A stretch of 38,960 nucleotides of DNA, taken from IMG/VR virus record IMGVR_UViG_3300009646_000070; one strand, written 5' to 3'. Positions 6,458 to 31,138 of the stretch are shown here, one piece after another (the first letter of the stretch is position 1; the number at the start of each line of letters is the position of its first letter). Under the pieces are notes generated by a model. It did no database searches and had not been told where the DNA came from. It saw only the letters and a program-made list of their open reading frames with translations. A program made the translations under genes and the position numbers. The stretch is from a virus.

Positions 6458-6586
6458 CAGGCCCACAATAATCAGCCATAATTTCCCTACGGTCATGGCA
6501 CGATGTTGTCTGTATACGCCTTGCTTTGCAACACACGTCTAAGAACTTGCCTAACAACTAGGGTATGGCTGATTATGGTGGACCTG
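6458..6586 (-). ncRNA. Predicted rod-shaped structured RNA closed by a 22-bp stem, directly downstream of the tmRNA
   Basis: 6565-6586 and 6458-6479 are inverted repeats (20/22); inner pairings CCCTA/TAGGG, GTTGT/ACAAC and a TTGC-AAA-GCAA hairpin. Confidence 0.45.
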
Positions 6587-6925
6587 CGGAGGCGGTGAAC
6601 GCCGTCCATTAAACTCGGTAGGGGAGTCCTTCGACTCCCCATCCTTGTATGCAAACTACGCATTTGCGTAAAGCACCTTCGTGTTTTTCGCAGTTAGTTT
6701 TGAGAGTTGATTTCGGAAGTCTCCCACTCCCGGCTCAAATAAGCGCCGTTTCCTCTTACCCCGGTCGATGCCATTATACCCCCGTATGGTGGAGGTAGAG
6801 AGAATCGAACTCTCGTGTCGTTGTATAGTCATACGGCCTGTTTATGAGCGTACTTTATAATAGCTCTCGGCGGACCAGAACGCCGGGCTACTGCCAGTAC
6901 CAAGGGGCCTCACGGCCTCCACCAT
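6576..6925 (-). ncRNA. ssrA: Circularly permuted (two-piece) tmRNA; tag AKNTKVLYANA*
   Basis: Acceptor piece ends GAGAG-TTCGATT-CTCTC-TACCTCC-A-CCA (3' end 6787). It is followed by TAC and then the coding-piece 5' end GGGGGTA-TAATGGCATCGAC (6783). The acceptor stem has G3:U70 and A73. PK1 (GGGAG/CTTCC, GGGAG/CTCTC) precedes TAACT-GCG; tag frame 6691-6656. Outer ends are approximate. Confidence 0.9.
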
Positions 6926-17356: not shown

Positions 17357-17396
17357 GCCTCCAATAAAGTAATCAGGGAAGGTCGGCAAGACACAA

Positions 17397-17468
17397 GCTG
17401 CTCGGCAGGGATCGAACCTCCGAGTTCGGCCCTGTGGACCGGAACTCTACCGCTGAGTTACGTGTGGC
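17397..17468 (-). pseudogene. Degenerate tRNA
   Basis: D arm TAACTCAGCGGTAGAGT and T arm GGAGGTTCGATCCCT present; acceptor strands do not pair, no CCA, anticodon loop irregular. Confidence 0.55.
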
Positions 17469-17540
17469 ATGGCCGCTGGCTTGCCTTGTACTTCGGCGAA
17501 ACCAGAATCCAAGGCAGTTATGCCTTGCCGACCTTCCCCG

Positions 17541-17891
17541 TTACCGTCTCAAAGACTGCGGAGGGCCTATCGGGCCTCCGACCAAATCGAAAAAAGCGGC
17601 CAACAGCGAAGGTGCTCCGAACAGGTCAACCAAGACCTTGATTGTGCCAATGTGTTTGCACACTTTGCGCTGAGGCCATTCCCGGAAATGGAAGTCCGGG
17701 CAAGAGCACAGATATTCGTTGTTGTCGGTGCCGTAGGTGAAAGGCAGAGTCAGACGTGTGGTGACCACGTATTCCTTCTCGGGGTCCGATTGCGAAGTCA
17801 CGTAGAAAATCTGTGAATACCGCACGGGACCCAGCTTCTTTGTGGTTCTGACTTCCATGCCGTTGAGTGAAAGAACTTTTGTTTTGTCCAT
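17541..17891 (-). CDS. SWIM zinc-finger protein
   Basis: YLCSCPDF...CKHI. Confidence 0.75.
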   Translation of the reverse strand: MDKTKVLSLNGMEVRTTKKLGPVRYSQIFYVTSQSDPEKEYVVTTRLTLPFTYGTDNNEYLCSCPDFHFREWPQRKVCKHIGTIKVLVDLFGAPSLLAAFFDLVGGPIGPPQSLRR

Positions 17892-18278: not shown

Positions 18279-18439
18279 TGTTCATCTCCTCGAATTTAAT
18301 TTCAAAAGACGCATGACGTTGTAGGCGTCCTCCACGCCTCGTTATCCTTCGCTGGCAGGCACTTCTTCCTTACTACTCTGCTGAGCATTGATGTGATCTC
18401 CCTCAGTCGGTCCAACGACTCCGGCCATGCGTCTTGTCT

Positions 18440-18513
18440 TGGTTTCCGGGGCTGGACTCGAACCAACGTTCTCAGGTTCAAAGCCTGATGTCCTACCATT
18501 GGACGACCCGGAA
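18440..18513 (-). tRNA. tRNA-Gln(UUG)
   Basis: TTCCGGG/CCCGGAA acceptor, TCAGG-CT-TTG-AA-CCTGA, TTCGAGT loop, CCA. Confidence 0.93.
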
Positions 18514-18518
18514 AAAAT

Positions 18519-18605
18519 TGGTGGGGTGTAGTGGAGTCGAACCACCTGCCCACAAGTGAGCACGGGTTTACAGCCCGCCCTAGTCGCCAGTGCCAGTCAC
18601 ACCCC
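18519..18605 (-). tRNA. tRNA-Tyr(GUA)
   Basis: GGGGTGT/ACACCCC, GCGGG-CT-GTA-AA-CCCGT, long variable arm, CCA. Confidence 0.93.
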
Positions 18606-18616
18606 GAAAAAGAAAG

Positions 18617-18923
18617 TGCTGAGGGTAGATGGAGTCGAACCACCACAGAGGCTAGGCGCTGTACACACGGAGCTAGCCTCCATCCGCTTTTATTGCTACT
18701 GGATTTCACAAGGTTCCTGCCTCGCCTCAGCGCATAACTGGCGGCTTCGAGGAATGGGATTCGAGACCCACTATACGAAACAATTACCGGGCTTAATCCG
18801 GCACGTAACCGCATACCGAACGCAACTGCGTTGTGCCTATCCACAAGGCGCTCCAAGGATTTGAGGTCTTACGTCTATCAGTAGCCTATTTAGCGTTGCA
18901 TCTGCCGATTCTGCCATACCCCC
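18617..18923 (-). ncRNA. tRNA-Leu-like 5' and 3' ends bracketing a large structured insert (RNA-A)
   Basis: 5' GGGGGTA-TG-GCAGAATCGGCAGATGC (Leu-type D arm) pairs with 3' TACCCTC-A after the T arm GGTGG-TTCGACT-CCATC; ~230 nt lie between them. Confidence 0.6.
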
Positions 18924-18931
18924 GAAAAGGT

Positions 18932-19065
18932 TTTGGGGAAAGATGAGTGGTGAGGATTTCGCTTTCGGTTTCGTCCCGGCCTATCCTCTAGGGCTAGGGC
19001 GAAGCTGCGCCGTTGATTCGAGCCTAAGCGATGTCTTGCCCGTACGGGCCTCACCTTCCCCCAAA
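18932..19065 (-). ncRNA. Structured RNA between tRNAs; candidate YrlA-type Y RNA
   Basis: 11-bp closing stem TTTGGGGGAAG/CTTTCCCCAAA plus GTGAGG/CCTCAC; a T-like loop GGCTCGAATC precedes a GGCG/CGCC hairpin and a D-like TAGCCCTAGAGGATAGGC. Confidence 0.45.
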
Positions 19066-19067
19066 CT

Positions 19068-19152
19068 TGGTGGCGATAGAGGGAGTCGAACCCACACGGT
19101 TTTACCCACTGGTTTTTGAAACCAGCGCGTCTGCCAGTTCCACCATATCGCC
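19068..19152 (-). tRNA. tRNA-Leu(CAA)
   Basis: GGCGATA/TATCGCC, CTGGT-TT-CAA-AA-ACCAG, variable arm, CCA. Confidence 0.95.
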
Positions 19153-19161
19153 TGAAAGATT

Positions 19162-19244
19162 TGGTACGGGGAGAGGGCATCGAACCCCCATGGTTGCCCA
19201 CTGGTTTCTAAGACCAGCGCGTCTGCCAATTCCGCCATCCCCGC
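19162..19244 (-). tRNA. tRNA-Leu(UAG)
   Basis: GCGGGGA/TCCCCGT, CTGGT-CT-TAG-AA-ACCAG, CCA. Confidence 0.95.
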
Positions 19245-19246
19245 AC

Positions 19247-19503
19247 ACGAGAACATTCGGCAGAGTATCGTTACTCTTTTCTCGCAGTTCCTACCGGATT
19301 TGAAAAAAGAGAGTATGGATTTCACTTTGTTCCTGCCTACGCCTAGCCCGCATGGGGTTCGGACCCATGTTCCTGCGGTATATTCTGCCCGCAGTGTGCT
19401 TCCTGCATCGCCGGTTTGCCCCGGCTAGCCTATGTCTACACTAGCGGTAAGGTTTCGGTCTTACGTCTCTCACACTTTTTGATACTCTGCCGAATGCTCT
19501 CGT
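19247..19503 (-). ncRNA. Structured RNA closed by 23-bp inverted repeats (RNA-B), paralogous to the RNA-A insert
   Basis: IRs 19247-19269 / 19481-19503 (22/23); shares a 12/12 and a 20/23 motif with RNA-A; internal tRNA-like fold at 19343-19428. Confidence 0.6.
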
Positions 19504-19581
19504 TCTGTGGCAGCCAGGCGGCCGCCTGAGAGGCAAGCTCAAAACAGAGCTGACGGAAGCTCTCGATAGTAAGCCAATTGA

Positions 19582-19788
19582 TCATTGACCAGAAAGCTTG
19601 CGTATGGTCTCGCCGTAGTCCCTGACGGCACGGCTGACTGCCTCTGCGACAACTGGATTCCGACGCTCTGGAATGCCCGGGATGGTCAGGGTGGCGATTA
19701 TTGGATCTGCGTAGAATTGATACTTCAAGGCCACCTCACCGCCCACAGTGATTTCGAATCGCTCAATCTTTCTTATTCTTATTTCCAT
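19582..19788 (-). CDS. Hypothetical protein
   Basis: RBS GGAGAGG before MEIRIRK. Confidence 0.6.
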   Translation of the reverse strand: MEIRIRKIERFEITVGGEVALKYQFYADPIIATLTIPGIPERRNPVVAEAVSRAVRDYGETIRKLSGQ

Positions 19789-20101
19789 CGCCCTCTCCTT
19801 CGTTGGCTTGGTTATCCTACTCCTCCAGCAACTCGGAAATCCTCTTTCTCTCAATCCACTTAAACCCAGCATAGCTCGTCACTAAAGCGATGTCCACGTC
19901 TCCGCCCGCGGTTTTTGAAGTTGCGACGATCATAACTTCCCATGTTACCATACCTCCAATCCCTTGTCAACTGGTTTTTTTTGGGCGGTCGGAGTCGGAT
20001 ACTCCGAAACAGCAGCCTCGCATCGGCCAACGCTTTACGTGGCCTTCGCCTGCAAGTCCATCGCATCTGCTGTCAGCTTGCAGCCTCCGCCCAAATCTAT
20101 T

Positions 20102-20176
20102 TGGTGCGCCCGGATGGATTTGAACCACCGGCTTCCTGCTTGTAGGGCAGGCACTCTTCCGCTGAGTTACGAGCGC
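20102..20176 (-). tRNA. tRNA-Val(UAC)
   Basis: GCGCTCG/CGGGCGC, CCTGC-CC-TAC-AA-GCAGG, CCA. Confidence 0.92.
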
Positions 20177-20177
20177 A

Positions 20178-20271
20178 TGGCGGAAGGTGCTGGATTTGAA
20201 CCAGCGGGTCCCTTTGAGGGGGACCAACGGTTTAGCAAACCGCCGCATTCGACCATCTCTGCCAACCTTCC
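20178..20271 (-). tRNA. tRNA-Ser(GCU)
   Basis: GGAAGGT/ACCTTCC, GCGGT-TT-GCT-AA-ACCGT, long variable arm, G73, CCA. Confidence 0.95.
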
Positions 20272-20277
20272 GTAAAC

Positions 20278-20349
20278 CGCGCAGTGCGGGAGTCGAACCC
20301 GCCAGTAACGGCTTTGCAGGCCGTTGCCTAGCCGATTGGCTTCCTGCGC
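20278..20349 (-). tRNA. tRNA-Cys(GCA), atypical
   Basis: ACGGC-CT-GCA-AA-GCCGT with canonical arms; G7-A66 mismatch, G discriminator, no encoded CCA. Confidence 0.75.
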
Positions 20350-21389
20350 GTAGTGAACGCCACATTTCGTTTCGGACGCTCGGGAGCGTGAGCCAAATTT
20401 TCAAGCGGCACTCGCTCGATAGGAATGTTCTGAATAGCCGGACCGGGCACGTTCAAACGTCCGGTAGGGCTAGGAGCGTCCATGTCCAACTTGCTACGCC
20501 AGCCAAGGAAGATTGCATGACGTGGTTTAACCTTGGCACCATGTGGAAAGTGTTTGTACTTCATGATGCGACCGTTGTAGGCCAGTGGGTTCGCTTGCAG
20601 TTCTTTCCACATCTTGCGTCGCTGGCGCATCGTGAATCCGACGCCGACCTCGAACTCGACTTTGCTCTTGCAATCACGTACTAGAAACCGGCCAAGCAAA
20701 GGCAGAGGCACCTTACCAGCTTTGGACAGGGACCTCTTCGTATGGCCGAGGGCGTTCTTGAACGCAGCATTGGCGTTGTGATAGAGGGGTAGAAAATCAT
20801 AGACCTCGGCGTCTGCGTCAACAAACCTCTTCACCTTTAGCAGCCAGCCTTCCCGCTCTGTTGACCGGCCATGCTTGTACGGACCTTGCGGGTCCCGGAT
20901 CATCACGCCCTCGCCGCCATGGGCTAGAACGTCTTTCTCGAAGGCCCGCAACTCAGCCACACAGAATACGAGGGTCTGGCGGACAGCTTTAACACTGAAA
21001 GACAACGGACCCATAGCAGTAACAGCATAGCAATAATCTTCGTACCGTTGCTCGAAAGGCTTGTCCTCTACCTTGTCGAATACGTAAAAGTCAACGTCTG
21101 CGCCACGGGAATCATGTTCACTCATGACGATGGAAAGCGTGAGGCAGTAGCAATCCTTTGCATTCGGGTCGCCGTAAATAAGCTCTCCGTCCAGACCCGG
21201 CTCTGCCCTGCGAAGTTTTTCCTGCACAAATTCGTTCGGAATCAGATTCATACTGCGACTCATAACAACCGAGGCAGTATTATCTTCCTTGTGAATAAAC
21301 GCACGAATCCCGTCCAGCTTCACAGAGGCATAGACCGGGTAGCGTAACTTTTTCACATTGCTTGTCTGTGTTGCCAACATCACCTGCAT
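20328..21389 (-). CDS. ATP-dependent DNA ligase
   Basis: ASVKLDGIRA (motif I), LDGEL, FYVFD, GGEGVMIR, LLKVK, OB-fold VGVGFT, KYK...KPRHAIF. Confidence 0.93.
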   Translation of the reverse strand: MQVMLATQTSNVKKLRYPVYASVKLDGIRAFIHKEDNTASVVMSRSMNLIPNEFVQEKLRRAEPGLDGELIYGDPNAKDCYCLTLSIVMSEHDSRGADVDFYVFDKVEDKPFEQRYEDYCYAVTAMGPLSFSVKAVRQTLVFCVAELRAFEKDVLAHGGEGVMIRDPQGPYKHGRSTEREGWLLKVKRFVDADAEVYDFLPLYHNANAAFKNALGHTKRSLSKAGKVPLPLLGRFLVRDCKSKVEFEVGVGFTMRQRRKMWKELQANPLAYNGRIMKYKHFPHGAKVKPRHAIFLGWRSKLDMDAPSPTGRLNVPGPAIQNIPIERVPLENLAHAPERPKRNVAFTTRRKPIG

Positions 21390-26474: not shown

Positions 26475-27484
26475 AAAGTCTCCGTTACTTCTTAGCGTTT
26501 CGCACGCCATGAATTGCAGCCGCCCGCCGTTGCAATTGTACCGGCTACTAAAGCAGAGATAATCACACCGTCATGTAAGTCGCTCGCAGCATTGGAGTTA
26601 TGTGGTCATCGTCCCACCCGGACTGACTAGCTCCAATGCTCTGAGCGACCGACATTGGAAATATCGGCCACCCAAACTCTTTTATGCACGCATCTAAGGT
26701 GTTTTTCCTTAGCGGTAACTCAGGATGGCCTGTAGCGTTCCTTCCTCGTTTGTTCCCTTCCACTCTTGCCTACTCTATTCGGTTGTCTCTCCGAAATACA
26801 CTCAGCAAGTCGTGGGGTTCAGTCTAACCAACGGAAGATTGCACCATCATGGTATTTGTTTTTCCGAGTTCTTTGGGTTCTCACTCCCGTCTTTCTCTTT
26901 CAATTGCCTGTGAGTTTTTCTTTCTGGCCTTGGTTGCTCGCCCTATCTCAGTTCAGGTATCACGGGGGTCGCTGCTTTCTCGTATTTCGTTCCTTAGCTA
27001 GCTTCCGCTCCCCGTTTTTCTTTGAAGGGCTTCTTCCTCCGCTTTCTTCCGCTGGCTTTCTCAAACACCCTTTACTACTGCATTCCGCCTGCCAATGTGT
27101 GCAATTATATGGGCAAGTCGTTGATATAGAAAGAAATATATTGTTTGCCGGTCGGCCAGCAGGAACGTAATCACATAAGGCCCCGGCCTGTGTGTGGGTT
27201 TCCCCTCACTGGAATGTTACCGTTCGGGTATATTTGTCCATATATTTGCATGGCGAGCCGGGAATGTTCCCGCTCGGGAGCCGGGGATTGTCAATGTAGG
27301 CCAGACGCTTTCTGTTACTGCCCTACTTAGTCTAGCCTCTCGGCTGTTTAAATTCAATAGGTTATCCTGTGGAAATGGGAGGCTAGGACAGCCTCTAATA
27401 GTGACCTTTTGTTTCCAATGCTATTTATTGAGTTAGGTATAATAACTATATTTGCTTTGTTTTGTTTAAGATAAAAAATAGTGC

Positions 27485-29972: not shown

Positions 29973-30068
29973 GGGGGAGTATATAAAATTGGGACTTATA
30001 TACATGACTCCCTCACGTTGAAAACAAAGGAAATTTGGCAAGCGAATCACCTACAAGGAGTTGACCGC

Positions 30069-30236
30069 ATGAACAAAAAATCTCAGGACTCAATATTTCA
30101 TATCTCCTGCCCCCATTGTGGCGAAGCGTTATTGGCTCACTGCGATGGCTCCGAACTTGTTCTTGAAGTTCGCTATGAAGTTGAACGTCCCACGTCGGCC
30201 AAAGCCAATAAGCCGAAGAAAGCGACAAAGGGTTAA
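30069..30236 (+). CDS. Small zinc-ribbon protein (element cargo)
   Basis: RBS AAGGAG; HISCPHCGEALLAHC. Confidence 0.6.
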   Translation: MNKKSQDSIFHISCPHCGEALLAHCDGSELVLEVRYEVERPTSAKANKPKKATKG

Positions 30237-30239
30237 GCG

Positions 30240-30362
30240 ATGAAAAAAGTTCCGCCTGTGTTGGACCGTATAACAGACGTTGTTCTAGCCTATCATCCGA
30301 AGCGAAAGGCAAAAACGAACAATCCGAAAAAGAGGAAAAATGCGACACGTCGTAGCTCTTAG
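30240..30362 (+). CDS. 40-aa basic peptide (element cargo)
   Basis: MKKVPPVLDRITDVVLAYHPKRKAKTNNPKKRKNATRRSS*; similar short ORFs are recalled downstream of IS1595-family transposases (unverified). Confidence 0.5.
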   Translation: MKKVPPVLDRITDVVLAYHPKRKAKTNNPKKRKNATRRSS

Positions 30363-31056
30363 TGGAGGGAAGGACAGCACAGCAATGGCCCTGCTTTTGG
30401 CCGAAGTTGAGCCGAGAGATTACACATACGTCTGCACTCCTACAGGCAACGAGCCTCCTGAAATGTTTGAGCACTGGCTTAACCTTGGTCGCATCCTCGG
30501 AAAGCCGCTCCTTCCCATAATTGGGGGAACGCTTGTTGGACTCATTGAAAAACAGATGGCTCTCCCGAACTGGTGGCAAAGGTGGTGTACTCGACTTCTC
30601 AAGATCGAACCTTACGCAGCTTGGCTCTCCAAACAAGGCGAATGTACATCTTACGTCGGGATTCGCGCCGACGAGCCTGACAGGGAAGGCGGGGATTACC
30701 TTGACATTCCTGGCGTGATTATGGACTTCCCTTTGAAGCGTTTGGGTTGTGGATTGAGGGAAGTCTTGGCTATCAATCAACGCCACGGAGTGACTATCCC
30801 CAAGAGAACGGATTGCGACCTCTGCTTCTTCCAAAGGCTTATCGAGTGGTGGGAATTTTGGAAGCGCAATCCGCTTGGATGGGCTGAAGGTGAGCGGCTC
30901 GAAAAGCTCACTGGTCACAGCTTCCGCTCGCCAGGAAGAGATACCTGGCCCGCTTCTGTGGAGGGACTGAGGCTGAGATTTGAGGCAGGCGACATTCCAA
31001 AGGACACAAGGCGCGACCCGCTCAATGAAATGAAGTGTCGCGTGTGTCGGTTGTAA
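30340..31056 (+). CDS. PAPS-reductase-family (PP-loop) protein (element cargo)
   Basis: VVALSGGKDSTAM PP-loop, TGNEPPE, RWCTRLLKIEP, YVGIRADE, RTDC..CFFQ. Confidence 0.85.
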   Translation: MRHVVALSGGKDSTAMALLLAEVEPRDYTYVCTPTGNEPPEMFEHWLNLGRILGKPLLPIIGGTLVGLIEKQMALPNWWQRWCTRLLKIEPYAAWLSKQGECTSYVGIRADEPDREGGDYLDIPGVIMDFPLKRLGCGLREVLAINQRHGVTIPKRTDCDLCFFQRLIEWWEFWKRNPLGWAEGERLEKLTGHSFRSPGRDTWPASVEGLRLRFEAGDIPKDTRRDPLNEMKCRVCRL

Positions 31057-31138
31057 AGCGAGCAAATCGGCCTTATGGATGCTAGTCTCAAGCACGGGAG
31101 TCATGTATATAAGTCCCATAAAATTCAAGGAGGCTGAA

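Follow-up and report, generated by a model that had tools for sequence, protein, structure and literature searches.

A free-standing RNA in a phage tRNA operon, closed by a 23-bp stem, and its diverged paralogue in a tRNA-shaped carrier

Background

The tRNA gene cluster of phage T4 contains two further stable RNAs of around 120-140 nt, species 1 and species 2 (rnaC, rnaD), which are co-transcribed with the tRNAs and matured by the tRNA-processing machinery; the roles of these RNAs have been open since T4. To our knowledge, they do not occur as two paralogues in different scaffolds. Long duplexes formed by the sequences flanking a stable RNA are known as the RNase III stems of rRNAs, and in the engineered tRNA scaffolds of Ponchon et al. 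the carrier reportedly supplies maturation and stability to its cargo.

The RNA described here (RNA-B) is situated in a virus sequence of 38,960 nt (IMG/VR record IMGVR_UViG_3300009646_000070; this whole analysed stretch is referred to as the window). Likened by description alone, it resembles T4 species 1 and 2, i.e., a small RNA without assigned function that is encoded among phage tRNA genes, and it lies within the tRNA array in the same orientation; it differs from them in its terminal duplex of 23 bp and in having a paralogue in a second scaffold. As in the rRNA stems, a duplex of more than 20 bp is predicted to form from its 5' and 3' flanks inside a polycistronic transcript, whereas one strand of RNA-B doubles as the leader of the next tRNA. 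The carrier of the paralogue (RNA-A) resembles engineered tRNA scaffolds and tmRNA in combining a tRNA body, with its processing signals and nuclease protection, with a foreign module; unlike in these, the same module is borne by RNA-B without a tRNA body, and the mRNA-like part of tmRNA has no counterpart. This hairpin-borne twin of a tRNA-scaffolded module is what is new here.

Theta (HDV-like) ribozymes also adjoin phage tRNAs (PMC10879173). Like these and the twister-P5 copies of the window, the module appears to be a compact structured RNA in phage transcripts, tied to RNA processing; unlike theta ribozymes, it matches no ribozyme model, is nested without the double pseudoknot of HDV, and offers no cleavage site that could be named.

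Organization of the tRNA operon

The phage encodes RecA, a Mom-like protein, a primase/helicase, a helicase, an Rnl1-family RNA ligase, a PD-(D/E)XK nuclease, an ATP-dependent DNA ligase, and GroEL; the RNAs of the window include a permuted tmRNA (6656-6849), four Rfam-level twister-P5 ribozymes, and ten tRNAs. Its nearest cultured relatives according to the primase/helicase (34-37% identity) are phages of Tunturiibacter (Acidobacteriota), and genes identical to its own are found on many peat-metagenome contigs.

On the minus strand, the DNA ligase is followed by tRNA-Cys, tRNA-Ser, tRNA-Val, a hairpin spacer of 127 nt, a promoter-like site, a 68-codon ORF with a strong Shine-Dalgarno sequence, RNA-B (19503-19247), tRNA-Leu(UAG), tRNA-Leu(CAA), a spacer (spacer C), RNA-A (18923-18620), tRNA-Tyr, and tRNA-Gln. 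Promoter-like site, small ORF, RNA-B, and seven tRNAs are thus all located on one strand.

19942-19970, minus strand: promoter-like site TTGACA-17-TG-n-TAACAT (10/12 match, extended -10)

The hairpin spacer (19975-20101, minus strand, following tRNA-Val) is predicted to fold into a long branched hairpin GGGCGG...CCGCCC, after which there is an A-run; it is situated just upstream of the promoter-like site and is kept on contigs without the Cys-Ser-Val cassette. This cassette is present or absent within one species (contigs L154-L163 compared to window positions 18300-20350), the tRNA island being modular; for the region upstream of the 68-codon ORF, two versions of its start exist among the contigs.

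Terminal stem and position of RNA-B

19247-19503, minus strand: RNA-B, whole element (23-bp closing stem and interior)
19481-19503, minus strand: 5' arm of the terminal stem, an inverted repeat inside a 49-codon ORF
19247-19269, minus strand: 3' arm of the terminal stem; doubles as conserved leader of the first tRNA
19162-19244, minus strand: tRNA-Leu(UAG), directly downstream of RNA-B

The two arms of RNA-B are 23 nt long each, 96% complementary, and 211 nt apart. The 22/23 inverted repeats given for its ends in the original prediction are correctly placed, and the stem is even complete at the RNA level: the single mismatch of the DNA is a G-U pair in the minus-strand RNA (23/23 paired) and a C-A on the plus strand. 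All 23 pairs are contiguous in both the MFE fold and the centroid. The predicted fold of the minus strand (-105.6 kcal/mol, z -7.6, mostly due to the 23-bp stem) is more stable than that of the plus strand (-97.3 kcal/mol, z -6.6). Concerning processing, the flanks are predicted to form an uninterrupted duplex of at least around 20 bp, as in stems of the RNase III type.

The downstream arm stops, as had been noted, just before tRNA-Leu(UAG), with 2 nt between the end of the arm (19247) and the start of the tRNA (19244). In sister phages without RNA-B, the same 25-nt leader (87-89% identical) directly precedes tRNA-Tyr (sister phage L010, 11321-11347). To judge from this comparison, the 3' arm is an ancestral tRNA leader, so that the 5' arm would have been matched to an existing processing site and would not represent a transposon end. 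Near-perfect 23-bp inverted repeats spaced by 211 bp, together with another insertion bounded by terminal inverted repeats (TIRs) at 29990-31118, might suggest an element acting at the DNA level, be it a miniature inverted-repeat transposon (MITE) or a site of recombination or replication with 23-bp TIRs. We regard this as very improbable: the 3' repeat pre-exists as tRNA leader in relatives without the element, a target-site duplication and further copies were not found, the arms are unrelated to the other TIRs, the mismatch is a G-U on the transcribed strand, and the paralogue in RNA-A possesses no such repeats.

The 5' arm lies inside an ORF of 49 codons (19436-19585, minus strand), which shares an ATGA with the stop of the 68-codon ORF and extends across the arm as far as the core of RNA-B. 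If this ORF (read from 19585 to 19436) were translated, coding would have shaped the 5' part of the sequence. The open frame with its ATGA coupling and its prediction by gene callers on most contigs agree with such an explanation, but there are 0 homologues among 1.84 billion representatives, the ORF covers the first third of the element alone, and a block within it is conserved at 12/12 positions in RNA-A, where no frame exists; we consider it the least credible of the alternatives. For ORF103 and the 68-codon ORF, as for the 49-codon ORF, no family was found beyond this phage group.

Interior of RNA-B and insert of RNA-A

18620-18923, minus strand: RNA-A, tRNA-shaped and of Leu type, with the paralogous core (18695-18885) on its anticodon stem
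19457-19468, minus strand: conserved block AGACGUAAGACC, 12/12 compared to 18865-18876, including the 5' strand of a small hairpin
19428-19433, minus strand: conserved AUAGGC, found with its order kept at 18835-18840 in RNA-A and at 18979-18984 in spacer C
19316-19338, minus strand: conserved 3' block AGGCAGGAAC-NNN-GUGAAAUCCA, 20/23 compared to 18700-18722, running into the 3' strand of stem P1 (19312-19317)

By sequence comparison, the interior of RNA-B (a module of around 165 nt) is a diverged paralogue of the insert of RNA-A (around 190 nt). Their local alignment reaches a score of 39, compared to 16.4 +/- 2.4 in 300 dinucleotide shuffles (z=9.3), and they have 11 8-mers in common where 0.6 are expected. 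The motif AGACGTAAGACC is identical at 12/12 positions in both RNAs (15/16 including its flanks), and ATAGGC, a CCGG/CCGG hairpin, and a hairpin GGGTC(T)CGAA(T/C)CCCAT are found in the same order. The interior blocks that are identical comprise 12, 10, and 10 nt; the remainder has diverged to a near-random background. The original prediction of a free-standing, diverged paralogue of the RNA-A insert is therefore well supported by the alignment and by the order of the shared blocks; the 12/12 block, the 20/23 block, ATAGGC, and the T-like hairpin were all recovered in both copies, and every feature described for 19247-19503 was found at its coordinates.

The motif GCAGGAAC occurs three times on the minus strand in 39 kb, always inside RNA-A or RNA-B; together with GAAAUCC it is almost confined to these RNAs in the window, and both recur in an additional 3' hairpin of RNA-B. 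This recurrence hints at what may be a repeated recognition element.

The shared blocks also bear on the question whether RNA-B is a cis-acting processing or insulator element alone, which would separate the mRNA of the small ORF from the tRNA precursor and block exonucleases, its interior being functionless. Its situation between the ORF and the first tRNA, the use of the tRNA leader as 3' arm, the occurrence of other long stems in intergenic spacers, and the concentration of most of the thermodynamic signal in the stem all accord with this. It leaves unexplained, however, why blocks of 12, 10, and 10 nt are identical to RNA-A amid divergence and why the same interior is found within a tRNA-like body, and the sister phages, which have this leader too, process their tRNAs from it with no RNA-B present; we therefore consider it unlikely.

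Helices of the module

19471-19476, minus strand: 5' strand AGUGUG of the inner closing stem P1, pairing with CAUACU (19312-19317)
19447-19464, minus strand: small hairpin GUAAG...CUUAC; an AAG...CUU hairpin is possible in RNA-A, RNA-B, and spacer C
19410-19425, minus strand: hairpin GCCGG-loop-CCGGC; CCGG-loop-CCGG in RNA-A (18787-18801), with the stem kept and different loops
19373-19394, minus strand: B-specific hairpin CUGCGG/CCGCAG in the MFE fold and the centroid, absent from RNA-A
19351-19369, minus strand: T-arm-like hairpin CAUGGG-UCCGAAC-CCCAUG, matching RNA-A 18755-18770
19274-19313, minus strand: B-specific 3' hairpin with a loop repeating AAAUCC and AGGAAC

The module is predicted to form a nested multi-helix junction. 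Its best-supported helix is P1 (GCUACUG/CAGUAGC in RNA-A, AGUGUG/CAUACU in RNA-B). In both RNAs, P1 occupies an equivalent position among the conserved blocks, adjoining A(U/G)AGACG on its 5' side and GAAAUC on its 3' side, and it covaries between them: by direct reading, 4/6 aligned pairs have changed in both strands without loss of pairing, two of which are also counted in the consensus fold. This consensus fold, based on a MAFFT alignment of the two copies, is informative for the closing stem alone. A lower stem beneath the T-like hairpin likewise differs while remaining paired (GUUUCG/CGAAGC in RNA-A, CCGCA/UGCGG in RNA-B), but in RNA-B it competes with the B-specific hairpin at 19373-19394, whose 3' strand can instead pair with the UGCGG following the T-like hairpin. 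The AAG/CUU, CCGG, and T-like hairpins are neutral with regard to pairing because their sequence itself is conserved. At position 19357, 6/11 contigs of the same phage possess a U, which results in the loop UCCGAAU, as in RNA-A.

Compared to shuffled sequences, the interior of RNA-B without its terminal stem is modestly more stable (z=-2.4), whereas the core of RNA-A is not (z=-1.1), and several helices of the module are ambiguous, with alternative pairings such as UGGGU with AUCCA and GACC with GGUC. The claim that the helices differ in sequence and stay paired thus applies to P1 and to the lower stem under the T-like hairpin, the others being conserved, lineage-specific, or ambiguous; that of conserved loops on variable helices is partly borne out, with covariation confined to one or two helices and two copies. 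Judged from sequence and predicted folds, RNA-B appears to be a genuine paralogous RNA element, oriented with transcription, whose outer stem is well defined and whose inner stem covaries; the structural statistics are thin.

RNA-A and known RNA classes

RNA-A retains acceptor, D, variable, and T arms and carries the foreign module on its anticodon stem (ACGCU/AGCGG), from which an internal loop (6x6, rich in A) leads to the module. In a population variant (18896 A>C), the A-G mismatch at 27-43 becomes a C-G pair, and this restored pair supports the anticodon-stem pairing. The variable arm (18648-18681, minus strand) is unusually large, with a 9-bp stem GGAGGCUAG/CCUAGCCUC and a loop of 16 nt; ARAGORN can take this loop as an alternative strand of the anticodon arm. 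In intron mode, ARAGORN parses RNA-A as tRNA-Thr(UGU) with an intron of 224 nt. We judge this parse to be an artefact: its loop UGUGUAC has G33, 27-43 is A-C or C-C, and it requires an unpaired variable region of 11 nt in a body of class II type.

In size (around 200-250 nt) and anticodon-arm position, RNA-A is comparable to the group I introns in the anticodon loops of bacterial and phage tRNAs. Unlike self-splicing introns, the module has ends that are paired to one another; removal of the module leaves a loop AAAUAAA without U33, i.e., no usable anticodon loop; and RNA-B possesses no exons. A group I intron (RF00028) gave no model match at E<=10, neither P1/IGS nor P7 nor omega-G could be assigned, and no guide complementary to the 5' flank was seen in RNA-A; group II introns or their domain V were not matched either, the element measuring just around 165-260 nt. 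The description of the RNA-A part as an insert in the sense of an intron is accordingly doubtful.

Searches with Rfam in 18400-19800 recovered, at the gathering threshold as well as at E<=10, the tRNAs alone, while twisters and tmRNA were detected elsewhere in the window; the original prediction that no known class can be assigned agrees with this. Small self-cleaving ribozymes (twister, hammerhead, HDV-like, pistol, hatchet, twister-sister) did not match at E<=10 in this region, and the hammerhead core CUGANGA is not present (the sequence has UGA-N-AG). No tRNA (RF00005) was matched within 19247-19503, the T-arm-like hairpin being the single resemblance. Y RNA/YrlA, tmRNA, RNase P RNA, 6S, SRP, and GOLLD/ROOL gave no model match either, the sole tmRNA being that at 6656-6849. 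For a retron ncRNA, repeats are present, but family scans of around 40 ORFs of the window revealed no reverse transcriptase. Inspection of the sequence itself likewise led us to reject a hammerhead, an HDV-like ribozyme, RNase P RNA, SRP RNA, Y RNA, and a retron. A resemblance to two stretches of the VS ribozyme, in reversed order, was discounted. A complementarity of UAAGACC to the anticodon arm of tRNA-Leu(UAG), over 7 nt, is within chance.

A new intron-like or self-cleaving RNA, the RNA-A copy of which would be removed to mature the tRNA (possibly with rejoining by the Rnl1-type ligase) and which would exist as a free-standing ribozyme in RNA-B, is suggested by the completeness of the tRNA body, by the many twister ribozymes used by the phage and the RNA ligase it encodes, by invariant junction strands as found in small ribozymes, and by the ARAGORN parse with its 224-nt intron. 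We nevertheless rate it as rather unlikely, since the group I, group II, and small-ribozyme models that failed to match come from a search in which the twisters of the window were detected, the loop left by excision and the parse itself are unsuitable as described above, the variant at 18896 favours the non-intron pairing, RNA-B is without exons, and a polynucleotide kinase was not found in family scans of the ORFs of the window.

Distribution among related phages

Among the contigs of this phage type, 11/11 that span the site carry RNA-B, with one polymorphic loop position; they originate from several studies. One of these contigs (L160) possesses RNA-B and is without tRNA-Leu(CAA), spacer C, RNA-A, tRNA-Tyr, and tRNA-Gln; with these five RNA genes deleted, it joins tRNA-Leu(UAG) directly to the region upstream of ORF103. 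Sister phages (ligase 86% identical) have neither RNA-A nor RNA-B nor spacer C; as they do without both RNAs, RNA-A and RNA-B are dispensable.

Concerning more distant relatives, a blastn search (distant mode) with 18606-19510 as the query matched, among 50,697 records of GenBank phages, tRNA-Leu genes only. Exact-motif scans for the 3' block yielded 1 chance match in a coding region in IMG/VR, 51 matches in JGI metagenomes (0 with the 5' block), and 23 in GTDB genomes with similarity confined to the motif; two-block patterns with gaps of 85-175 nt found one coding-gene family or nothing in IMG/VR, and the 5' block plus ATAGGC gave 4 chance matches. An nhmmer profile of both copies recovered the same phage alone among 149 loci, including 80 ligase neighbourhoods from IMG/VR, and a ligase search of IMG/VR found no close relative. 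The collection searches need exact motifs or close similarity, so that distant relatives could be missed, and the contigs of this phage itself were missing from the results of the motif scans, which may have left out look-alikes as well. A covariance model of RNA-B alone does not recover RNA-A; together with the reliance on exact motifs, this means that the absence of distant relatives is not proven. Instead of the structured RNA family that had been proposed, the module so far appears to be an orphan of one phage species, as blastn, motif scans, and profile search provided no homologue outside it.

It could also be a non-functional remnant, with both copies representing decaying duplicates of one spacer in a recombining island and the stems being by-products. 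The strong polymorphism of the island (cassettes present or absent, spacer C exchanged), the sister phages without both RNAs, the failure to find homologues outside, and the weak z-scores of the interior folds fit this explanation. Neutral decay, however, should not leave perfect blocks of 10-12 nt in a near-random background, nor preserve a stem through 4 double changes or a 23/23 duplex, and RNA-B is invariant, apart from one loop site, on 11 contigs from several studies; such an origin is thus not likely in our opinion. If the module is inert, the locus would show recombination in tRNA islands creating structured-looking spacers.

Possible role of the module

The reading that we favour, tentatively and at somewhat less than even confidence, is that RNA-B is an accessory stable non-coding RNA of a phage from peat soil, a cargo displayed from two scaffolds and cut from a promoter-driven tRNA operon. 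RNA-B would be transcribed from the promoter at around 19970 together with the 68-codon ORF and the tRNA array. The 23-bp duplex, linking the sequence after the ORF to the leader of tRNA-Leu(UAG), would act as a processing and protection stem of the type cut by RNase III around rRNAs, and cleavage by RNase P at the 5' end of tRNA-Leu(UAG), 2 nt downstream, would free the 3' side. The functional unit would be the inner module of around 165 nt, comprising a multi-helix junction, a closing stem of 6-7 bp, invariant joining strands, and the T-loop-like hairpin, while the paralogous module of around 190 nt would be displayed in the second scaffold, the anticodon arm of RNA-A. The module would most likely act as an RNA in trans, as a binder or decoy that, e.g., binds or titrates a host or phage factor in a tRNA-centred conflict.

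Since the same module occurs in a stem and in a tRNA body, the module itself may be taken as the functional cargo, with the carriers supplying maturation and stability. This cargo reading is suggested by the paralogy (z=9.3) with its ordered invariant blocks and by the maintenance of P1 through double changes; by a terminal stem that is fully paired solely in the minus-strand RNA, the strand that folds better; by the operon setting and by stems of 21-23 bp enclosing other structured RNAs (17376-17538, 6458-6586); by the full tRNA body of RNA-A with its 27-43 variant and the presence of RNA-B on 11/11 contigs; and by the near-confinement of GCAGGAAC and GAAAUCC to these RNAs. It is weakened by the fact that selection on structure is read from two copies, with interior z-scores of -2.4 (RNA-B) and -1.1 (RNA-A), as well as by ambiguous helices, by sister phages without both RNAs, and by the 49-codon ORF over the 5' arm.

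One module on two unrelated carriers in one operon would make the cargo separable from the scaffold and singles out the part that deserves testing. Should the module bind or cut something, phage-host conflict would include a new kind of RNA tool, and scaffolded RNA expression would have a precedent in nature.

Spacer C and further stem-closed elements

18926-19067, minus strand: spacer C between tRNA-Leu(CAA) and RNA-A, with a possible miniature relative at 18935-19062

Spacer C possesses an outer stem GGGGGAA/UUUCCCC, an inner stem GGUGAGG/CCUCACC, and a hairpin CCCGUACGGG, and carries CAAGAC, AUAGGC, and GCGAAAUC in the same order as RNA-A and RNA-B; its sequence similarity to them alone is not significant (z 1.4-1.9). 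On three contigs, this spacer of 142 nt is exchanged for one of 85 nt, C' (contig L156, 3269-3353), which keeps the stems and has an interior of just CAAG-GAUACGC-GGAAC-UGG-UGGCAAUC. As far as can be read from the sequence, this interior looks like the junction motifs of RNA-A and RNA-B minus the side hairpins.

The module might even represent a functional class of RNA that is new, being a ribozyme or else binding a tRNA-directed host factor with high affinity, which phages would carry on interchangeable natural scaffolds; these would be the tRNA body, the long stem of RNase III type, and perhaps also the short stems in C and C', and the junction strands AGACGUAAGACC, AUAGGC, GCAGGAAC, and GUGAAAUCC would form the active site. 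We consider so far-reaching an explanation rather improbable; if true, it would provide a natural counterpart of engineered RNA scaffolds.

Further long stems are found in intergenic regions of the window. An element at 17372-17542 (minus strand) has repeat arms of 21 nt (17376-17396/17518-17538), around 27 pairs in the MFE fold, and a z-score of -7.3; it encloses a degenerate tRNA-like sequence (20.4 bits with the tRNA model, below threshold, and not called by ARAGORN) and is spanned by an aligned block common to the window and the sister phage L010. An inverted repeat of 23 nt (6458-6480/6564-6586, 91% complementary) is located a short way downstream of the gene for the permuted tmRNA (minus strand), has 83 nt between its arms, and may be another processing stem. 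In 26573-26655, an intergenic inverted repeat of 28 nt (82% complementary, 27 nt between the arms) adjoins a twister-rich segment.

In the sister phage L010 (11297-11347 and 11511-11590), a direct repeat ACAAGACGCATGG flanks the tRNA-Tyr/Gln pair, which is also situated within an imperfect inverted repeat, with TACTCTGCCGAATG as leader and GCTCAGCAGAGTA as trailer. From its sequence, this inverted repeat suggests an older processing stem around the whole tRNA array; the trailer also occurs in the window (18370-18445).
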